Shown: positions 1,315 through 47,393 of the stretch, piece by piece
Position numbering within the stretch: the first letter of the stretch is position 1
Layout: each line of letters opens with the position of its first letter
DNA from: an uncultured Nitrososphaerota archaeon
GTDB lineage: Archaea > Thermoproteota > Methanomethylicia > Nezhaarchaeales > WYZ-LMO8
Reading direction: 5' to 3'
DNA: 57,162 bases
Assembly: GCA_964562935.1 (NCBI GenBank)
Contig: CAZLVJ010000001.1
Location: 33,859-91,020, forward strand
The notes under the pieces: model-generated
The model's database searches: none
Seen by the model: the letters and a program-made list of their open reading frames with translations, nothing else
What the model was told of the DNA's origin: nothing
Translations under genes and position numbers: made by a program

Positions 1315-1497
1315 ATTAAAGAAAGTTAAAGTTTATATTTAACCCCCTTTCTTACCAAAGCTCTTGGGCTCGTAAAGTGATGCCGCACACGACGGATGCC
1401 GTGGTGCTGAACTTAGTGATAGCGTTGGCTTTGTTGTGCGTATTTAAAGCGATTTCCGCCCTTGCCCAGAGGTAGACATAAATTATTAACGCCTTCA

Positions 1498-11084: not shown

Positions 11085-11870
11085 TCACTTCAAAGCTAGT
11101 AGAGCCGCGCCAAGAGCTCCTACGATTATAGGCTCCTTCGGAACCCAAATTTCACAACCAAGCCTACGCTCCAGAGCCTTTACAAAGCCTACGCTCTTCG
11201 CAACTCCCCCACTAGCAACTACATCTCTTGTTATTCCTACGATCTTCGCCAAACCAGCAACTCTCGACGCGAAAGCCTCTATCAGCCCAGCTATTATTTC
11301 CTCTTTGGGGACCCCCTGAGAGATCAAGGATATTACCTCTGTTTGAGCGAAGACGGTGCAAGTGTTAGTTATGCTAGCCCTTCTCTCTGTCTTGAGATAT
11401 ATCTCCCCGAACTCCTCTATACCGACGTCTAACACTTTAGACATAACTTCTAAAAACCTTCCAGTGCCAGCTGCGCACTTATCGTTCATTTCGAAGCCGA
11501 TCACGCGGCCTTCATCGTCGAGCTTTATGGCTTTAGCGTCTTGTCCTCCAACATCTATTACCCCTTTGCAGTTAGGGAAGAGGTATTTGGCGCCTCTGGC
11601 GTGACAAGTTATCTCGGAAGCGATGCTCCCTCCAACTTCTAATTGAACAATTTTGCCGCCGTACCCAGTCCCAACTATAGCCCTTACATCCTCTTTTGCG
11701 ATCCCTCCCATTTTTAGTGTCCTCTCAAAGATTTCACGAACGCACTTCCTCATATCGGGCTTCGTAGGTATTACGTCATGTACAACTACTTCTACCTGTC
11801 CGTCTTCTCTGATTCTTGCCAAGACGGCTTTTGTATACGCTGATCCAACGTCTATGCCAATACCATACAT
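11085..11870 (-). CDS. 2-hydroxyacyl-CoA dehydratase / benzoyl-CoA reductase activator ATPase (BcrAD_BadFG / HgdC-like)
   Basis: ASKHA N-terminus GIGIDVGSAYTKAV, and NDKCAAGTGRFLE with the cluster-bridging Cys. 261 aa. Confidence 0.85.
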   Translation of the reverse strand: MYGIGIDVGSAYTKAVLARIREDGQVEVVVHDVIPTKPDMRKCVREIFERTLKMGGIAKEDVRAIVGTGYGGKIVQLEVGGSIASEITCHARGAKYLFPNCKGVIDVGGQDAKAIKLDDEGRVIGFEMNDKCAAGTGRFLEVMSKVLDVGIEEFGEIYLKTERRASITNTCTVFAQTEVISLISQGVPKEEIIAGLIEAFASRVAGLAKIVGITRDVVASGGVAKSVGFVKALERRLGCEIWVPKEPIIVGALGAALLALK

Positions 11871-11892
11871 TTTTCAGAGGCACCTGAGCCCA

Positions 11893-13167
11893 TCATAGTA
11901 GCGATTCAATAAAAGCGTTTATCTTCGTTATAGCTCTCTCTAAAGGCATACCTCTTGGATCACATTGAGGGGCCTCGACAATTACGCTCGGTATTCCAAG
12001 TCCTTCCCAAAGCGTTTCCTTAAATCTTCGTAGGCCATACGAAAAAAGCCTACAACCAGTATTCTCAAACAGTATCGCACCGTCTAAGTCAGCCCTCTTT
12101 GCTCGACGAAGTACGGACTCTATCCATACATCGGCATCACAGTTCCACAGTGACATGCTACGCCTAACCAAGCTCTCCAAAGGCTTTGAAGACTCTATCA
12201 AGCAGAAAGTGTCTTCGACGTACAAATTTAGTGGGAAGACAACCCCCCTCTCCTCGTAATACTTGTAAAGCTCGCTATACCATGGAATTATCCCTTGAGA
12301 TAGAAGCCTTAATTTCTCCTCTTCGGCTACGCCCTCCCCCCTCTTGACCCTCTTCTTAATAATTTCCAAAGCCTCTTGAGTAAACTCTAGCGCGTAATCG
12401 GCTGCAGTAATGTAGAAGCCTATTAGTGGAAAGCCTCTGTAGTCCATTTGGCTCATGGGGGTCGGCTTGGAGATCATCAAATCCGCTATCTCGATTAAGT
12501 TCCTCGAAGTCTTCTCCGCTACCTCAAATACCCTTTTCATGCGTTCCTCGTCCAACTTCTCTCCCGTCAGCCCTTCTAGAAAGTGCATAAAATCCCACAG
12601 CTGGGTGACTACGAAATCGTAATCTTCTTTGCTGATCTTCTCGGGCTTTTTAGCTGGAAACTCTATTTTTCCAATTTTGTCTTCGGTCCAGAAGGGAGCA
12701 TCTATGATGAACCTCTTTAAGTTGCTGTAGAGGTTCGCGAAAACCTCTGACATCGCGTGGTGCCCACTATAACAAGCCATACGAGAGTCAAGCACGAAAT
12801 CGGGCTTCATGCCGCAGTGGCCGCCAAGAGGGGCTATTTCGCTATTCAAGATAGAGCCAATAGAGCACTTCAGATAGTCGCAGGTAAACTCACCGTAATG
12901 GTATTCGATGGCTACATCTATGAGCTTATCACTTGCCCCTTTACTCGCACAATAAGCCGAATACTGTTCCGGGAATACGTTCACAACGTCGAAGACGTAG
13001 GCGAGCTCTGTTGGAGAACAAGCCCAAAACCACCCTACTGGCTTTCCTCTACTTTTAAGTTCCATTAGTCGGGATAAGTGCCTTTGAAACATTTCTCTGA
13101 AAAGCTTGCGCACCTCCTCTAAGGGCCTCCAAGATTGGACCTTTAACTCCTTAGGCACTTCTCTCAC
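11893..13167 (-). CDS. 2-hydroxyacyl-CoA dehydratase family subunit (HgdB/BcrB-like)
   Basis: 424-aa ORF directly upstream of the activase, with the Cys-containing pattern typical of the HGD-D family. Overlaps the preceding subunit gene by 17 nt. Confidence 0.7.
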   Translation of the reverse strand: MREVPKELKVQSWRPLEEVRKLFREMFQRHLSRLMELKSRGKPVGWFWACSPTELAYVFDVVNVFPEQYSAYCASKGASDKLIDVAIEYHYGEFTCDYLKCSIGSILNSEIAPLGGHCGMKPDFVLDSRMACYSGHHAMSEVFANLYSNLKRFIIDAPFWTEDKIGKIEFPAKKPEKISKEDYDFVVTQLWDFMHFLEGLTGEKLDEERMKRVFEVAEKTSRNLIEIADLMISKPTPMSQMDYRGFPLIGFYITAADYALEFTQEALEIIKKRVKRGEGVAEEEKLRLLSQGIIPWYSELYKYYEERGVVFPLNLYVEDTFCLIESSKPLESLVRRSMSLWNCDADVWIESVLRRAKRADLDGAILFENTGCRLFSYGLRRFKETLWEGLGIPSVIVEAPQCDPRGMPLERAITKINAFIESLL

Positions 13168-14356
13168 GCACCATCTCTACGAAGGCCCTCATCCTAGTCA
13201 CGTAGTGCTCCCTCGGAAGCGGGTAGTCTAGATCCAATCTGACCGAGGGAATGTTGAGCTTTCTCAGGCCGTCCCTCAAGTGAGGGTAGGCAAACCCCAT
13301 GACTTCACATCCTCTGTCGACTAAGAACACCACTCCATCGGCCTCGAACTCTTCCACCAATGAGCGTATGTACTCCACCCTCTCGTCTACAGCCCTTGAG
13401 AGCTGCTTTGACATTAACAAGTTCGGCACTTTAAATAAGTAATGTTCTGCCAAGGCGTCGTAAGGATCTCTGTCCTCATCGACTTCATTCCAAAAGTAAG
13501 TCGTCCCTGTGTTTAAGTCATCAGAAACTATTTTTGCTCCGCAGTCCTCTATTATCTGCAAGATGTCGAGATCGATAACTTCAGTCCCAGATACGTGCAC
13601 TTTGACTTTTTTATCAGCATCACCCTCTTGCCTACGTTGGGCCCTCAGCTCACTGATCTCCTCTAGGACCTTCTTAACGACCTTTGAATGCTCTTCCTTG
13701 GGCATTGTCATGCTTAAGATTACAACCTTTAAGACGTCAGCTCCAGTCAAGGGAAAATCTTCCCTCTTCCTAGCCTCGTAAAGCATCTTGAGCAATCGGC
13801 GATTCTCGTTGTATATTTTAATGGCCCTCCTCAAATCGTCGTCAGATATAGCTAACCCCAAGAACTCCTCTATCCTGTTTTTGAGGTTTAAAACCTCTTT
13901 TACGAAATACTCTTTGCTTAGCTCACTCTTTAAGACTGGAACCTGCAAGAGGTATGAGAACTTAGGCTTTAGGACGTGCTTTAACAAGTAGAATAGTGCT
14001 ATGCAGGTGTCTTCCAACTTCGAGGCAATGAGGCCGTCAAGCCAATTGTACTCGCCGCTCAGGGCCACTTCTAGGCACCTTCTTGAAAAACTACAGCTCC
14101 AAGATGGTAAGTAGGTGTACGCCTTCTCAATTAATTGCGCCTTTCCAAAGAGCCTAAAGGGAAGCACGCCAGCTGCGTATAGGACCTCTTCTGGTATGTT
14201 CCACGAGACTAAACCGAAAACCTTCCCACCCCTTTCGTGGACCTCCTTGGCGGTCTTTGCAACTTCTCCACTGAACTCCTTCTCGATATAGTCGATTAGA
14301 TCCTTTACTTGCACGCCCACCTTCACGGTCACTCTCCTAGCAATTGACGAGAGCAA
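13151..14356 (-). CDS. 2-hydroxyacyl-CoA dehydratase family subunit (HgdA/BcrC-like)
   Basis: Maximal ORF from TTG 14356. GTG 14326 is more likely the real start: AGGAGA lies 6 nt upstream, and 14356 sits only 9 nt from the predicted TATA box. Confidence 0.7.
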   Translation of the reverse strand: MLSSIARRVTVKVGVQVKDLIDYIEKEFSGEVAKTAKEVHERGGKVFGLVSWNIPEEVLYAAGVLPFRLFGKAQLIEKAYTYLPSWSCSFSRRCLEVALSGEYNWLDGLIASKLEDTCIALFYLLKHVLKPKFSYLLQVPVLKSELSKEYFVKEVLNLKNRIEEFLGLAISDDDLRRAIKIYNENRRLLKMLYEARKREDFPLTGADVLKVVILSMTMPKEEHSKVVKKVLEEISELRAQRRQEGDADKKVKVHVSGTEVIDLDILQIIEDCGAKIVSDDLNTGTTYFWNEVDEDRDPYDALAEHYLFKVPNLLMSKQLSRAVDERVEYIRSLVEEFEADGVVFLVDRGCEVMGFAYPHLRDGLRKLNIPSVRLDLDYPLPREHYVTRMRAFVEMVRERSA

Positions 14357-22671: not shown

Positions 22672-22910
22672 GAGGCGTAATGTTCATCCTCTCGACAAGC
22701 CCTCAAAAAGCCTTCTGCAAGCCATTAAGGGGAAAGTCGTCAATAACCGCGCGCAGTTTGTTAACGGGCTTAAGGCTTGAGACGCGTGGAAATAACGTTA
22801 AGATTTTTAAGGGTCTTCGGTACCAAGAGAACTCGCCACACATACCCCCTCAAGTGAAGCCTGAGGAATGTCCTTGACCCATCAGATGATGACGTCATCG
22901 GGGGATTTGT

Positions 22911-28773: not shown

Positions 28774-29023
28774 CTCGATAGAAATAGTTACTTGGAGGCC
28801 TTAAACTCTGCCTCTTCTAGCAGAGCCTCATAAGCACGCAATCGATGACCCGCTAAGGGAAAAGGTACTCGTCTACCGTCGTAAGCCCAAGGGCCTGGAG
28901 AATAAAGACGCTGACAAGCAAAGAGAAGAGAACAGTGGTTAGCACGCACTTTTATGGTGTGACACCGTTTAATCCAAGACGAAGAGGATAAATATCGTCC
29001 AGCTTACCTGTGATTCGAGCTCC

Positions 29024-30231: not shown

Positions 30232-30402
30232 CGCGCTCGTTCTGTGAGGCCTCACGTTAACCATGAGGGCAAATCAGGGACTCTAGATACAATTCCCAAT
30301 GGCTTGCGCTATAGAGTTCGCTGACGTGCTATGGATGTGCTGTAAAAGTTTTTTAGTCTCTAAGCGTTAGAGGAGTGTCACGATTATTTGAGGTGCCAAG
30401 GG

Positions 30403-32607
30403 ATGGTGAAGTTCAAGCAGACTGAGGAGATCCTTAAGATCATGAGAAATCGTGAATTTGTCAGAAACATCGGTACCCTAGCTCATGTAGATCATGGTAA
30501 GACGACCCTCAGCGACAGTCTGTTGATGGCGGCCGGCATGATCTCTCCTAAAGTGGCTGGCAAGGCCTTAGCGCTCGATTATGTCGAGATAGAGCAGCTT
30601 AGGCAGATGACCGTTAAGGCTGCCAACGTGTCCCTATATCATGAGTGGGAAGGTAAGCCCTACGTCATTAACTTGGTCGACACCCCTGGCCACGTCGATT
30701 TTACAGGTCACGTGACTCGTAGCTTACGCGTTATGGACGGGGCCATTGTCGTGGTCGACGCCGTAGAGGGCGTCATGACCCAGACGGAGACTGTCGTCAG
30801 GCAAGCCATGGAGGAGCGCGTCAGGCCTCTCTTATACATCAACAAGGTCGACCGCTTGATTAAGGAGCTCAAGCTCAGCGCTAACGAGGTCCAGCAGAGG
30901 TTTGTGGGCATCATCAGAGACTTTAACGCTTTGATAGATCTATACGCCGATCCTGAGTTTAGGAATAACTGGAAGGTCGATCCAGCAAAGGGTCAAGTGG
31001 CTTTCGGCTCAGCCCTTCATAAGTGGGGTTTGACAATCCCCATCGCTCAGCAAAAGGGCGTAAGGTTCAGCTACATCGTCGACGCCTATGAGAGGGGTTA
31101 CTACGACAAGCTCGCTGAGGACTTCCCCCTCTACGCTGCCATCTTGGACATGGTTGTTGAGCACGTTCCCAACCCCGTGGAGGCCCAGAGATATCGACTT
31201 CCCAAGATTTGGAGGGGCGACCTCGACTCTCCCGTAGGTAAGGCAATGCTGAACTGTGACGACCAAGGTCCCCTGGTAGTATGCGTGAGCAAAGTCGTGG
31301 CCGACCCTCATGCTGGCTTAGTGGCGACAGGTCGTGTTTTTAGCGGAACGGTCGAAGAGGCTCGCGAGGTCTACTTGATGATGGCTAGAGCTACGGAGAG
31401 GATTACACAAGTCGGCCTCTACATGGGTCCTTATCGCGAGGTCTGCGAGAGCGTAACCGCTGGCAACATTGCCGCCATGCTCGGCTTGGAGCATGCTAGG
31501 GCTGGGGAGACGGTCATAGATCCCGCGCTGAAGGGTAGCATGATTCCATTCGAGAGGCTCCGCTACATTAGCGAGCCCGTCGTAACTATCGCCATCGAGC
31601 CCAAGAAGAGTAGCGACCTCCCGAAGCTCGTCGAGGCCCTCAGGAAGATGGCCATAGAGGATCCGACCCTCCACGTCAAGATAAACCAAGAGACGGGCGA
31701 GTACCTGATAGCTGGCATGGGCCAGCTCCATTTAGAGATAGCTCTTTGGGACCTCAAGCAGAGGACGGGGATTGAGGTCGTCACCTCCCCGCCCATAGTC
31801 GTTTATCGAGAAAGCATAAGGAAGAGCGTGGGTCCCTTCGAAGGCAAGTCTCCCAACAAGCACAACAGGGTCTACGTAGTCGTCGAGCCCCTGAACGAGG
31901 AGACTCTCCGCCTCTTGGAGATGGGCAAGATCTACGACGACCAGGACTGGCGCGAGCGTGCCAAGATCTTGAGGGAGGAAGCTGGCTGGGACGCCGACGA
32001 AGCTAGGGGTATATGGGCTATCGACGACTTCTTCAACATATTTGTCGACGCCACAAAAGGCGTCCAGTACTTAAGGGACGTCAAGGACACCCTGATCTCA
32101 GGGTTCAGATGGGCCTTGGCCGAAGGCCCCCTTTGCCATGAGCCTTGCCGTGGAGTCAAGGTTAAGCTGGTCGATGCCCTAATCCACGAAGACCCAGCCC
32201 ACCGCGGTCCGGCACAGCTCATGCCAGCCCTTCGAGACGCAACCTTCGCGGCCTTCTTGTCCGCTAGACCTACGCTTCTGGAGCCAGTCTTGAAGATCGA
32301 GGCCAAGTGCCCCGCCGACTACATATCTGGGCTGACTAGGGTATTGATGACTAGGCGCGGCAAGATCGCGAGCTTAGAGTCTCAGGAGCTACTAATGATT
32401 TTGAAAGGCGAGATCCCTGTCGCTGAGACCTTCGACCTAGCAAACGAAATTAGGAGCGCTACCGCTGGGCGTGCCTTTTGGGCCACAGAGTTCAAGGGTT
32501 GGCAACCCGTCCCAGAGTCCATGCTTCAGGACTTGATACTGAAGATACGTGAGAGGAAGGGCTTACCGAAGACTATTCCAAAGCCAGAGGACTTTATGCC
32601 CCTATAG
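30403..32607 (+). CDS. fusA: translation elongation factor aEF-2
   Basis: [18 protein letters not shown] and NKVDR G motifs, and the diphthamide loop HEDPAHRGPAQ. ATG 30403 has AGGTG 8 nt upstream, so the TTG 30388 extension is unlikely. Uninterrupted. Confidence 0.95.
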   Translation: MVKFKQTEEILKIMRNREFVRNIGTLAHVDHGKTTLSDSLLMAAGMISPKVAGKALALDYVEIEQLRQMTVKAANVSLYHEWEGKPYVINLVDTPGHVDFTGHVTRSLRVMDGAIVVVDAVEGVMTQTETVVRQAMEERVRPLLYINKVDRLIKELKLSANEVQQRFVGIIRDFNALIDLYADPEFRNNWKVDPAKGQVAFGSALHKWGLTIPIAQQKGVRFSYIVDAYERGYYDKLAEDFPLYAAILDMVVEHVPNPVEAQRYRLPKIWRGDLDSPVGKAMLNCDDQGPLVVCVSKVVADPHAGLVATGRVFSGTVEEAREVYLMMARATERITQVGLYMGPYREVCESVTAGNIAAMLGLEHARAGETVIDPALKGSMIPFERLRYISEPVVTIAIEPKKSSDLPKLVEALRKMAIEDPTLHVKINQETGEYLIAGMGQLHLEIALWDLKQRTGIEVVTSPPIVVYRESIRKSVGPFEGKSPNKHNRVYVVVEPLNEETLRLLEMGKIYDDQDWRERAKILREEAGWDADEARGIWAIDDFFNIFVDATKGVQYLRDVKDTLISGFRWALAEGPLCHEPCRGVKVKLVDALIHEDPAHRGPAQLMPALRDATFAAFLSARPTLLEPVLKIEAKCPADYISGLTRVLMTRRGKIASLESQELLMILKGEIPVAETFDLANEIRSATAGRAFWATEFKGWQPVPESMLQDLILKIRERKGLPKTIPKPEDFMPL

Positions 32608-43442: not shown

Positions 43443-43862
43443 TTAAGGCTGGTAGCCTTCTAGCTCAAACCTGCCATCGCCCTTCATGTACACGACGCTT
43501 ACGCCGCCTTCTCTCAACCTTCGCCTTAACCTCCTATCGTTTGTCGCGACTACGTAGCCCTCTCTCCTAGAGATCTTGACTATAACGTCGTCGACTGCCC
43601 CCTCGCCATCCTCAACGACTTCAAACCCCCCTTTCTTCACGTACTCTAGGACAGCGCGAGCTATTCGAGCGGCCTTTCGTCTCTTGTCGGAGCTCGCCAT
43701 CCTCTCAAGCTCTCGAAGTTGCGCTCTCAGGATGACTGGCCTGACCTTGGTCTCAAGCAACCCTTCAACTCTCTCAACAACATTTATGGGCCTCTCAAAA
43801 ATAGCCATCAAGAAGTTTGTGTCGAAGAGCACCTTAGTTGCGATTTTGCCTCCACTCCTCAC
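43443..43862 (-). CDS. PIN-domain protein (Fcf1/COG1412-like)
   Basis: VLFDTNFLM and VATNDRRLRRRL motifs. The GTG start overlaps the aIF2-gamma TGA stop. Conserved position between eif2g and rpoE'. Confidence 0.8.
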   Translation of the reverse strand: MRSGGKIATKVLFDTNFLMAIFERPINVVERVEGLLETKVRPVILRAQLRELERMASSDKRRKAARIARAVLEYVKKGGFEVVEDGEGAVDDVIVKISRREGYVVATNDRRLRRRLREGGVSVVYMKGDGRFELEGYQP

Positions 43863-45148
43863 CTGATTATTCCGTACCCTATGAGCCTAAACCTGCCGGA
43901 TATCTGGCGACTTATCGCTACTCTAGTTCCTGGCTCTGCGCATACTGGCCTACGTAGCTTCACCGAGACTACGTCTTTAGAGGCCTTAGCGACTATCCCT
44001 AGAGTAGTGGCCGTGCCAACGTTTATCATCAAGGTCTCGTTGGCTCTTATGTTCTCGACCTTAACCATGTCTACTGTTCCCACAGCTCTTTCAAACAGCA
44101 CGACTTCTAGGTCAAGCTCCGAGAGCGTTGGAGGGAGCGTGCCGGGCTTGCCCACGACGCTACCAGCTAAGGCGTCTGCTTTCGTGAGTGAGGGGTCTAG
44201 AAGTGTACCAATGCCTATCAACCCTCCGGGTTTAGCCTCTTCTACGCTTACATCGCCAGCCTTTAGGCTCACTATTTGAGTGTACAACGGCTCGTACTCG
44301 ACCCTCCCGCCTCCTTTCTCTATCCTGACGCCGGGTCTTATCTCGACCTCGTCGCCCACCCTGGCAACACCTTGGATTATAGAGCCTCCTAAGACCCCAC
44401 CTCTTAGTTCTTCGGGCGGCGTCCCAGGCTTGTTGACGTCAAAGGACCTAGCTATCAGCGCTCTCAAAGGCTTTGACGGATCCCTTTTTGGTGTCGGGAT
44501 GGTCTTCTCTATGACCTCGACCAAGACATCAAGGTTTGCTCTATGGAGGGCAGAGATCGGAATTATTGGCGCATCCCTGTACATGGTTTCTCTCAAGAAC
44601 TCCCTTATCTGACGATAGTTCTCAATGACCTTATCTCTCGGAGCGACCTCTATCTTATTTTGTACCACCACCACGTTTCTGACCCCCATTATTTCGAGGG
44701 CCTTCAAGTGCTCTCGCGTCTGAGGCTGAGGACACGGAGCTGTAGCGTCGATCACCAATATGGCTCCGTCAAATAGCGTAGCCCCTGCGAGCATAGTTGC
44801 CATCAACATATCACGTTGCACGCCCGTTTATGGGCGTGCAATTTCGTGTCCGGGACAGTCCACGAACGAGTACTTCCTCAAGAACTCAAGCTTAGACCCG
44901 CAGTGCTTGCAAGTAGTCCCCGAGAGCGCGTAAGTTGTATAACATTGAGGAGGCGGGCATTTGGGGCACTTCAAGACCGTGGTGTCGGCGTAACCCAGCC
45001 TAAGTGTTATCCCCCTTCTCAATTCCTCGGAGTGCCTTGAAGCCCATACTCCCGAGAGGGCCCACGTCAAGGTCGTCTTGCCGTGGTCTACGTGACCCGT
45101 CGTGCCTATGTTCAGCTCAGCCTGCTTTTTCATCCACCCCTCAACCAT
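43859..45148 (-). CDS. eif2g: translation initiation factor aIF2 gamma subunit, interrupted by a 33-nt predicted intron (exons 45148..44843 and 44809..43859, 418 aa after splicing)
   Basis: [10 protein letters not shown], a 4-Cys zinc knuckle, DCPGHE then in-frame TAA, then [19 protein letters not shown]. The two track ORFs (44828..45148 and 43859..44821) are in the same frame. The start could also be Met 45133. Confidence 0.9.
44810..44842 (-). other. predicted 33-nt BHB/BHL-type mRNA intron in aIF2-gamma
   Basis: 4-bp helix CACG/CGUG, flanked by a 3-nt bulge AAA and AUA, plus a perfect 10-bp inner hairpin with loop AUAAAC containing the UAA stop. Excision restores PGHE-M-LMATML. Confidence 0.65.
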
Positions 45149-45572: not shown

Positions 45573-47393
45573 TCAATACCTGCCAGCAATCCTCTTTATC
45601 TTAGTGATTTCATCGATGAGCTCCAGCTCCTCTCTTGACAACTGATCAGAGAACTTCTCCTTCAATACTCTCACATGTTCTAAGGGTACGTCAACGTACA
45701 GGTAATCGCCTTCGTCGACATGTCTACCAACAATTACGTCCCCCTTAATAGATATCGCGACGGCTTGCCCTGCCACGGCCTCACTTAAGCTCTTTTTCTG
45801 TTCTTGTATCTGCATTATCACCCCAACCCTTCTGCCCTTAGCGTTAATCAATGGATACCCGGGCCTTAGCCTCCCGGCCAATACTTCGACTCCGACTATC
45901 GCCGGGTCGCTCCTTCTGAATACGTAGCCCTTTAAGATACGGGCCTTCCCGGGCAAGATTAGGGAGGATAGCGTCTGCCTGCGATCCTCTTCCATTTTCT
46001 TCTTGACCCAAGCTAAGTAGTCCTCTATCAGCCTGTAAATGACATTGTTTTTAAACACCGGTATGTTCCTACTCTCTATCTCTTGCTCTGCGTCGGGGCT
46101 CGTACTAACGTTGAACGCTAAGATGACGCCGTGGTAGGGGTCCTTATCTCTCGTTATCGCGGCTTCGACGACGTCCCTCTTCGATATCTTTCCGACGTCA
46201 GCCAACCTCACTGGCACGCCTAGCTCCTGTAGCTTCGACACCAATGCCTCAAGGGATCCCAAGGTATCGGCTTTAACCACAACCCCTATGACGTCAGTCG
46301 TTATCCTGATCTTCGAGAGCTCCTCTGACACCCTCTTTACCGCTTCCTCGATTTCAGCTTGATCCCTCGCTGAGAAAAGAGGGCTACCAGCCACGGCGTC
46401 GTCGAGGCCATGGGCAACGACTCTTACGCCAGCGGCTGCGACGACCTCGTCCACGCTCTTGAACTTGTCCTCCGGGTCCCTCATCTCGTCCATGGGCTTG
46501 GGCATTAATATGCTCCTGATCTTGGTCACTATGGGACCTTTGAGCCCGCCGAGCACTATTGTGTCATCCTTTCTTAGTACGCCATCGTAAATTATCACGT
46601 CCACGACGTTGCCCAAGCCCGGGATCTCTCTGCACTCTAGCACCACGCCCTTAGCCGTCGCCTCCTCGACGTAGAGCCTCTTCAACATGTACCTCTGAGA
46701 CAGGCCGGCCAAGACGAGCAAGAGGTCTGGTACGCCCTCTCCCGTCTTAGCGCTTGTGGGTATTATGGCCACTGTTCTGGCGAAGTCTCTTATTCTGTCG
46801 TACCTGTCGGCTTGAAAGCCAAGCTCCTCAAACTTGGCCACGATGTTGTAGATGAGCTCGTCGAGCCTCCTCTGGACCTGAGGCGGCTGAGACTTTATTG
46901 TCTCAACGAACGGCTTGAACTCGTTCTCAACCCACCCAGGTATTTTGTCTATCTTGTTCGCGGCAACGACAAAGGGCGTTTTCCTAGCCTTTAAGATCTC
47001 CAAGCACTCGTAGGTTATCTCCTCAAAACCTTCGAGAACGTCTATGACCAAGATGGCCATGTCGGCTATCGAGCCGCCCCTCTTCCTCAAGTTCACGAAG
47101 GCCTCGTGTCCTGGAGTGTCTATGACCAAGAAGCCAGGTATCTTGATTTCAACCTTTATGCTCTTGAGTAGCGGACCGCAAATCCTCTCGAGAGCTGACC
47201 ACGGTAAGAAAGAAGCCCCAATGTGTTGGGTTTGCCACGTAGCGCCTGCTTGGCGCTACATCATGGCCCCAACCTCTTTAAACATAATCGCAGTGCCCCT
47301 GATCTTGTCCAGAAGAAGGGTCTTTCCTACATCTACGTGCCCTAGCACGCACAGAATGGGCGATCTGATTCTCTTGCTCTCACCACTGCTCAA
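45573..47393 (-). CDS. infB: translation initiation factor aIF5B (IF2 homologue), interrupted by a 30-nt predicted intron (exons 47393..47262 and 47231..45573, 596 aa after splicing)
   Basis: Exon 1 reads [26 protein letters not shown]...KEVGAM. Exon 2 reads TQHIGAS...[14 protein letters not shown], and onward. TTG 47393 has GAGGAGGTGA upstream. The track ORF 45573..47129 lacks the P-loop. Confidence 0.92.
47232..47261 (-). other. predicted 30-nt canonical bulge-helix-bulge mRNA intron in aIF5B
   Basis: hBHBh' structure: 6-bp outer helix, AAA bulge, 4-bp helix GCCA/UGGC, UGA bulge, 9-bp inner helix, 5-nt loop. Contains an in-frame UAG. Excision restores KEVGAMTQHIGA. Confidence 0.75.

Follow-up and report, generated by a model that had tools for sequence, protein, structure and literature searches.

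The gene for the gamma subunit of translation initiation factor aIF2 is interrupted in the window analyzed here, a 57,162-nt stretch of contig CAZLVJ010000001.1 from an uncultured archaeon of the order Nezhaarchaeales: on the minus strand, its reading frame is broken directly after ...DCPGHE by a 33-nt insert (44842..44810). We consider it highly probable that this insert is an archaeal endonuclease-type intron of the bulge–helix–bulge (BHB) family, located in the coding sequence and displaying a relaxed motif of the HBh' class (central helix H, bulge and inner helix h'); splicing itself we infer from the sequence. The insert is thus very probably a new example of the rare archaeal protein-coding introns, and the gene for aIF5B, 2.4 kb upstream of the aIF2-gamma gene, appears to carry another one.

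The two halves of the gene are readily recognized. A 106-aa open reading frame (ORF) at 44828..45148 and a 320-aa ORF downstream of it at 43859..44821 lie in the same frame of the minus strand; a first-pass annotation of the window had noticed this pair, and its coordinates proved correct at every position when compared with the sequence and the ORF list. Exon 1 (44843..45148) encodes the G1 motif GHVDHGKT, a zinc ribbon and the G3/switch II motif DCPGHE, its final codon being a Glu codon, GAA (44845-44843), and exon 2 (43859..44809) starts with an AUG (44809-44807, the Met of MLMATML) and encodes the remainder of the G domain as well as domains II and III, and includes the stop codon. The exon 2 product (P0011) has precomputed Pfam matches to GTP_EFTU, GTP_EFTU_D2 and eIF2_C, and the exon 1 product matches GTP_EFTU in related loci. 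Across the insert, the RNA reads GGA CAC GAA / AUU GCA CGC CCA UAA ACG GGC GUG CAA CGU GAU / AUG UUG AUG GCA, where the slashes delimit the putative intron AUUGCACGCCCAUAAACGGGCGUGCAACGUGAU (44810..44842). This 33-nt sequence occurs once in the window, as does its hairpin, which is therefore not a repeated element.

The predicted structure comprises (i) a 10-bp inner helix h' (span 44816..44841), formed by the arms UUGCACGCCC (44841-44832) and GGGCGUGCAA (44825-44816), which encloses the 6-nt loop AUAAAC (44826-44831); (ii) a 4-bp central helix H, in which exonic CACG (44845..44848), that is the His codon and the first base of the Glu codon, pairs with intronic CGUG (44812..44815); (iii) a 3-nt bulge on the 5' side, AAA in the window and A-R-A in relatives (44842..44844), and a 3-nt 'bulge' on the 3' side, AUA in the window and A-N-A in relatives (44809..44811). 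The palindrome, its loop, the CACG/CGUG helix and both bulges had been described in the first-pass annotation, and we find all of them as described there. In BHB introns, the cuts lie between bulge nucleotides 2 and 3 (PMC2738675), which here predicts cleavage between 44843 and 44842 and between 44810 and 44809. Excising 44842..44810 in this manner gives the predicted junction ...GGACACGAA / AUGUUGAUGG... (44843 to 44809) and a 418-aa protein containing PGHE/MLMATML, as had been proposed; this protein aligns with the structure of Pyrococcus abyssi aIF2-gamma (1kk0) without any gap at the junction (E = 8.6e-170) and matches uninterrupted orthologues.

Relatives of the locus were retrieved from the JGI, ENA, NCBI and Logan collections. 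One came from a genome-collection scan using the spliced protein as a query (L035) and one from a metagenome scan using the C-terminal part (L081); both scans were dominated by distant archaeal orthologues and gave no other close relatives, and the remaining useful ones were gathered through exact-protein look-ups. The best named protein matches belong to metagenome-assembled genomes (MAGs) of Candidatus Nezhaarchaeales/Nezhaarchaeota. At least 12 protein clusters, 83-91% identical to the C-terminal part encoded in the window, are likewise 313-322 aa long, i.e. split alike; the nearest full-length aIF2-gamma proteins display 72-74% identity, and the protein matches included no intact copy above 76% identity. 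Of 179 archaeal loci compared, only 21 have an insert at this site of the aIF2-gamma gene, all of them related Nezhaarchaeales loci from about 17 samples or assemblies (L035, L081 and L161-L179); 157 of the other loci are contiguous there. One of them (L179) is apparently the window's own contig, since its intron and flanks match those of the window, which leaves 20 independent loci, all from other samples or assemblies. The carriers share the gene order S6e–aIF2-gamma–PIN/Fcf1–RpoE'–Spt4–DUF359–S24e–Kae1–Bud32–TatD.

In all carriers, the insert, whose length is 31, 32 or 33 nt, lies at the identical codon boundary. Variants of 31 or 32 nt, which account for most of the loci, put the two ORFs in different frames, so that neither stop-codon read-through nor translation of the insert is possible there, and we ruled out both explanations on this basis. 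In these variants, a functional product could be obtained only by removing the insert at the RNA level or by making two separate proteins. In each of the 14 distinct variants, cutting by the BHB rule restores HE/ML and leaves an unbroken ORF of 420-453 codons. In the nearest uninterrupted orthologues (L001-L004), the corresponding segment, CAC GAR/AUG YUN AUG GC, encodes PGHEMLMATML, and the exon context is thus the same with or without the insert. The intron reading put forward in the first-pass annotation is supported by same-boundary inserts in 21 loci and by a restored HE/ML junction in every variant, as well as by the helices recovered from the alignment (see below).

The second possibility left by the frame-shifting variants is a truly split gene, in which two proteins are made, an N-terminal one of 106 aa (G1–G3) and a C-terminal one of about 316 aa that begins at the junction AUG, and associate again through non-covalent contacts; the hairpin would then be an intercistronic element. 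Gene callers and public annotation indeed give two ORFs, and an AUG lies exactly at the junction, but this AUG is an ancestral, conserved Met codon also present in the uninterrupted orthologues, and the sole Shine–Dalgarno-like bases, GUGAU, abut it and are variable (GUGAA, GUGAG), with no properly spaced element visible. Similarly, a stop codon in the loop would end the N-terminal protein in 10 of the 14 variants, but the other four would add variable out-of-frame tails of 9-29 aa to it. The break would moreover fall inside the G-domain core, just past the catalytic residues His-Glu in switch II. Applied to aIF5B, the same model would leave a 45-aa P-loop fragment. Finally, a split gene leaves unexplained why the non-coding CGUG is invariant and complementary to exonic CACG, and why the spacing is exactly 3 nt on both sides. 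We consequently hold a split gene to be improbable.

The loop stop codon deserves a separate comment. The first-pass annotation had pointed out an in-frame UAA in the loop, which is correct for the window (44830-44828) but does not hold as a general feature: a stop codon (UAA, UAG or UGA) is in frame at the fifth intron codon in 10 of the 14 distinct variants (alignment columns 52-57; window 44826..44831). Its retention in what is otherwise the most variable part of the insert may reflect selection to abort translation of the unspliced RNA, or chance.

The conservation pattern of the insert was assessed on an alignment of the 14 distinct sequences (A1). Pairwise differences amount to 45-48% at the third codon positions of the flanking exons, to 32% in the loop, to 6% in the inner stem and to 0% in the intronic CGUG, which is invariant in 14/14 sequences although non-coding. 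All indels are confined to the loop, so that the spacing of the two 3-nt stretches, 4 bp apart, is constant (columns 39-41 and 72-74). Standard pairs fill 98.6% of the alignment cells in the inner helix and 99% in the proposed structure as a whole, versus 20-50% when the partners are slid by 1-3 columns. The four Watson–Crick pairs of CACG–CGUG are found in all 14 sequences, and RNAalifold recovers the same H and h' helices without any supplied structure. Two compensatory double changes are observed, U-A to C-G and C-G to U-A, both in the same locus (L171), and three sequences contain U-G wobbles, which are meaningful only at the RNA level on the minus strand. These data suggest that the stems are under structural constraint and that the intron is maintained by selection for its helices. 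As for the exons, exon 1 displays 87-94% amino-acid identity to its relatives, with 37-59% synonymous codon differences (37-56% of the identical codons); both exons are under purifying selection and hence functional.

The same data bear on the explanation that the gene is a pseudogene, an assembly artefact or a strain-specific lesion, caused by a recent disruptive insertion or by a sequencing palindrome. Palindromic inserts can be artefacts, and the ORF is formally broken; against this, the insert is present with sequence variants in about 17 independent samples processed by different assembly pipelines, the exons bear the mark of strong purifying selection, the stems are more conserved than synonymous sites, the S6e–aIF2-gamma–PIN–RpoE–Spt4 context is the canonical one seen in intact orthologues, and the search for an intact copy above the 76% identity mentioned earlier was negative. 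The comparative data thus effectively refute this explanation, to which we give hardly any credence.

Regarding the class of the motif, no outer helix h adjoining it was found, either by RNAalifold or in the alignment of the 14 distinct variants, and it therefore does not qualify as a strict BHB (hBHBh') and is a relaxed motif of the HBh' type. The first-pass annotation had noted a nearly absent outer helix, reduced to A44849-U44808; this pair is indeed the only outer pairing in the window, but it is not conserved, being replaced by U-U in L035. RNAalifold also proposed a distant YCC/GGR pairing (columns 28-30 with 98-100), which we rejected as uninformative because Pro and Gly codons dictate the sequence on either side. 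The 5' splice site lies in a true enclosed bulge; the 3' site follows H in a single strand that stays open and forms no hairpin loop. The label 'relaxed BHB/BHL' of the first-pass annotation (BHL standing for bulge–helix–loop) is right as to the relaxed character of the motif, but BHL in the strict sense seems less apt: by the definitions of PMC5829648, HBh' (disrupted bulge) fits better.

When the segment 44790-44870 is folded with ViennaRNA, both helices are present in the minimum free energy (MFE) structure (-30.9 kcal/mol, z = -3.4). A register-shifted alternative pairs GACA with UGUU (44849..44852 with 44805..44808 in the window, with equivalents in L161, L164, L169, L172 and L173); this fold closes the 3' AUA bulge but disrupts the canonical central helix, and it is not conserved in the variants whose second exon starts with AUGCUN.

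Several observations weigh against the intron interpretation. First, the covariation signal is thin: a single sequence supplies the two double changes, and in 500 column shuffles the observed score is reached 25 times, so that the case rests mainly on conservation, the indel pattern and the frame logic. Second, helix H is marginal, since it belongs to the MFE structure of 9/14 variants at 37 °C and of only 4/14 at 75 °C, and ViennaRNA prefers the competing GACA/UGUU pairing in variants whose second exon starts with AUGUUR. Third, the missing outer helix leaves the 3' cut site in an open, unpaired strand, and cleavage there would require a broad-specificity endonuclease; relaxed motifs such as HBh' are cleaved only by (alpha-beta)2 enzymes with a specific loop or by epsilon2 enzymes (PMC5829648). 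Fourth, the RNA-splicing endonuclease EndA and the ligase RtcB are both absent from the 57-kb window, as judged by a Pfam scan of its roughly 58 ORFs. Finally, a protein of the spliced form spanning the junction with more than 70% identity was not found, in a protein collection derived mostly from DNA assemblies.

How often would such a motif arise by chance? We scanned both strands of the window for a strict BHB geometry (a 4-bp helix, 3-nt bulges, 9 bp or more in the inner helix and a loop no longer than 12 nt) and compared the outcome with 20 shuffles; the earliest version of the scan had been far too loose, with 535 matches per strand. The strict scan returned 5 sites versus a mean of 2.65 in the shuffled sequences, and the geometry by itself is thus not rare. 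A looser scan gave 48 candidates versus 32-57 in the shuffles, and only two of the 48 fuse long ORFs on excision. Excision by the BHB rule extends the open codons on the two sides from 11/13 to 110/316 at the aIF2-gamma site and from 5/37 to 52/552 at the aIF5B site. Given a background density of about 2e-5 per position, a chance match exactly at a frame-restoring site is very unlikely: what chance does not explain is the position rather than the geometry. Apart from the two ORF-fusing sites, the strict scan is at chance level. Three other hairpins on the minus strand (28798..28828, 22714..22749 and 1315..1348) display the strict geometry, again with 9 bp or more in the inner helix; they fuse no ORFs, their number is within the range of the shuffles, and they are treated as chance matches.

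The case for an intron in the aIF2-gamma gene is strengthened by its neighbor. The aIF5B frame is interrupted in switch I, between ...EVGAM and TQHIGAS, by a putative intron of 30 nt (47232..47261, minus strand) that shows a canonical hBHBh' arrangement, GUUGGG-GCCA-[UGA]-9-bp hairpin-UGGC-[AAA]-CCCAAC; with its 6-bp outer helix, it belongs to the strict class. It is found in Nezhaarchaeales loci (L035/L161-L179, about positions 2540-2595) and in Methanomethylicia loci L001 (about 2846-2880), L005 and L008. In the latter three, aIF2-gamma is uninterrupted, the aIF5B intron being more widespread than the aIF2-gamma intron. The length of the aIF5B intron ranges from 27 to 33 nt and its inner hairpins are unrelated in sequence (UGUAGCGCC, UCCAGCGGG, CCCCGC, CCGCU), while the geometry and the protein product are unchanged. 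This independent case indicates that mRNAs of this lineage carry endonuclease-type introns and, coming from the same lineage, makes the relaxed aIF2-gamma motif credible. Not every translational GTPase of this genome has an intron, as the aEF2 gene (30388..32607, plus strand; 739 aa, all EF-G domains) is uninterrupted.

The comparison of both genes is also informative about translational bypassing of the type known from T4 gene 60, which would yield the same protein: the ribosome would take off at the Glu codon GAR, skip the 31-33-nt hairpin, land on the last three bases of the insert and resume at the AUG. Both systems share a small untranslated gap within an essential gene, and in both this gap contains a hairpin and a stop codon. 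In favor of bypassing, the hairpin of the insert is stable and the stop codon near the take-off site; against it, the stop lies four codons past the take-off codon and is not adjacent to it. The last triplet of the insert is GAA or GAG, of the take-off codon family, in 7/14 variants, but in the other seven (the window and six others) it is GAU, an Asp codon non-cognate for tRNA-Glu, and the pseudo-symmetry of the BHB in any case accounts for the G-A-N similarity. The take-off codon in aIF5B would be AUG and the landing triplets are CAA, UAG, UAA and CAG, which never match it. The matched take-off and landing codons that define the T4 system are thus missing in half of the aIF2-gamma variants and wholly in aIF5B. 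Moreover, translational bypassing is not known in Archaea. Bypassing strikes us as highly improbable.

Taking the insert as an intron, we propose the following pathway, whose folding steps are shown by sequence and comparison, as is the exact match of the rule-predicted cut sites to the coding junction, and whose cleavage, ligation and release steps are modeled on known archaeal splicing (PMC2738675, PMC5829648, PMC10485636). In the S6e–aIF2-gamma transcript, the insert folds into the GC-rich 9-10-bp hairpin h'; exonic CACG, from the His-Glu codons of switch II, and intronic CGUG form H, leaving A-R-A and A-N-A unpaired on opposite strands. EndA would cleave after nucleotide 2 of each 3-nt stretch, and an RtcB-type ligase would join the exons into an mRNA reading ...CCC GGA CAC GAA/AUG UUG AUG..., which encodes the intact 418-aa aIF2-gamma, with the intron being released, possibly as a circle. 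Unspliced RNA would give no full-length product, owing to the loop stop or to the frameshift. The intron was probably gained within one Nezhaarchaeales clade and then kept by selection on its helices.

This scheme can be compared with several known systems, the first being the cbf5 pre-mRNA intron, reportedly the subject of work by Watanabe in 2002. As in cbf5, a short intron with a BHB-like, usually relaxed motif lies in a protein-coding sequence, with cuts between bulge nucleotides 2 and 3; it would be removed by the tRNA-splicing endonuclease instead of a spliceosome, and its clade-restricted distribution implies gain and loss. Both also sit at sites of catalytic residues, the catalytic Asp in Cbf5 and, here, the position directly after the His-Glu of switch II, the aIF5B intron being in switch I. 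The cbf5 introns of Crenarchaeota (Desulfurococcales and Sulfolobales), studied by Yokobori in 2009, mostly display relaxed motifs and occur at the codon for this Asp (PMC2738675). The cases differ in that the cbf5 host gene encodes a pseudouridine synthase whereas here it encodes a translation-initiation GTPase of uncultured Nezhaarchaeales, in that cbf5 splicing was shown by cDNA and in vitro cleavage whereas that of aIF2-gamma is deduced from sequence, and in that here the operon region contains a further gene with an intron of this kind, aIF5B. The intron in the 5' untranslated region of Haloferax volcanii HVO_1309 is another case in which the archaeal splicing endonuclease acts on an mRNA and not on tRNA or rRNA (PMC7714728; PMC10485636), but it lies in a leader, has a canonical motif and is processed by an alpha2-type enzyme, whereas the aIF2-gamma intron interrupts a frame and is relaxed. 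The resemblance to HBh' pre-tRNA introns (PMC5829648) is structural: both have a 4-bp H, one enclosed 3-nt bulge and an inner helix h', with the second bulge disrupted. They are of comparable size too, archaeal tRNA introns measuring 11-175 nt (PMC2738675). Unlike in these pre-tRNAs, no tRNA body aids recognition here and the exonic strand of H is under codon constraint. Eukaryotic HAC1/XBP1 splicing (IRE1 and tRNA ligase) likewise removes a small structured coding intron without a spliceosome, through a protein endonuclease and a tRNA-type ligase, from an mRNA that yields no functional protein when unspliced; its endonuclease is IRE1, its motif a twin stem-loop, and it is regulated, whereas nothing at aIF2-gamma indicates regulation.

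The only archaeal protein-coding sequence with a known endonuclease-type intron has for more than 20 years been that of cbf5, and the archaeal mRNA substrates named in reviews up to 2023-2025 are limited to cbf5 and the HVO_1309 leader; a 2023 review considered that further archaeal mRNA introns probably remain to be found (PMC10485636). A search of the available literature for reports linking aIF2, aIF5B, Nezhaarchaeota or Methanomethylicia with introns returned none. In public annotation, the 313-322-aa C-terminal piece (P0046, P0050, P0099 and others) is named 'translation initiation factor IF-2 subunit gamma', so that the intron is unrecognized in databases, and the N-terminal exon is annotated as a separate 106-114-aa GTP_EFTU ORF in L161-L179. 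Such introns would distort gene calls, completeness estimates and marker-protein alignments of these MAGs. Two introns, in an essential universal factor and in its neighbor, across many uncultured Thermoproteota, would roughly double the known set of archaeal mRNA introns, and they suggest that a relaxed motif can be maintained under strong selection outside the tRNA context. They would also provide a natural system for studying the competition of splicing with coupled transcription–translation, and could inform ideas on how unconventional mRNA splicing arose. As a speculation that we regard as unlikely, the aIF2-gamma and aIF5B introns might act as a checkpoint, both initiation GTPases being made only via EndA and RtcB and initiation capacity thereby being coupled to tRNA maturation, as a counterpart of regulated HAC1/XBP1-type splicing; with the same reserve, coding-sequence endonuclease-type introns may be common in Methanomethylicia/Nezhaarchaeia and masked by 'split' ORF calls in MAGs.

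As regards the rest of the window, the Pfam scan of its ORFs revealed no further interrupted genes, and neither tRNA nor Rfam scans, run on the window and on 13 loci, gave any match, so that no local tRNA introns are at hand for comparison. Note also an unrelated metabolic context on the minus strand at 11088..14356, where a BcrAD/BadFG-type activator ATPase and two HGD-D (2-hydroxyacyl-CoA dehydratase-like) subunits adjoin a luciferase-like monooxygenase gene.

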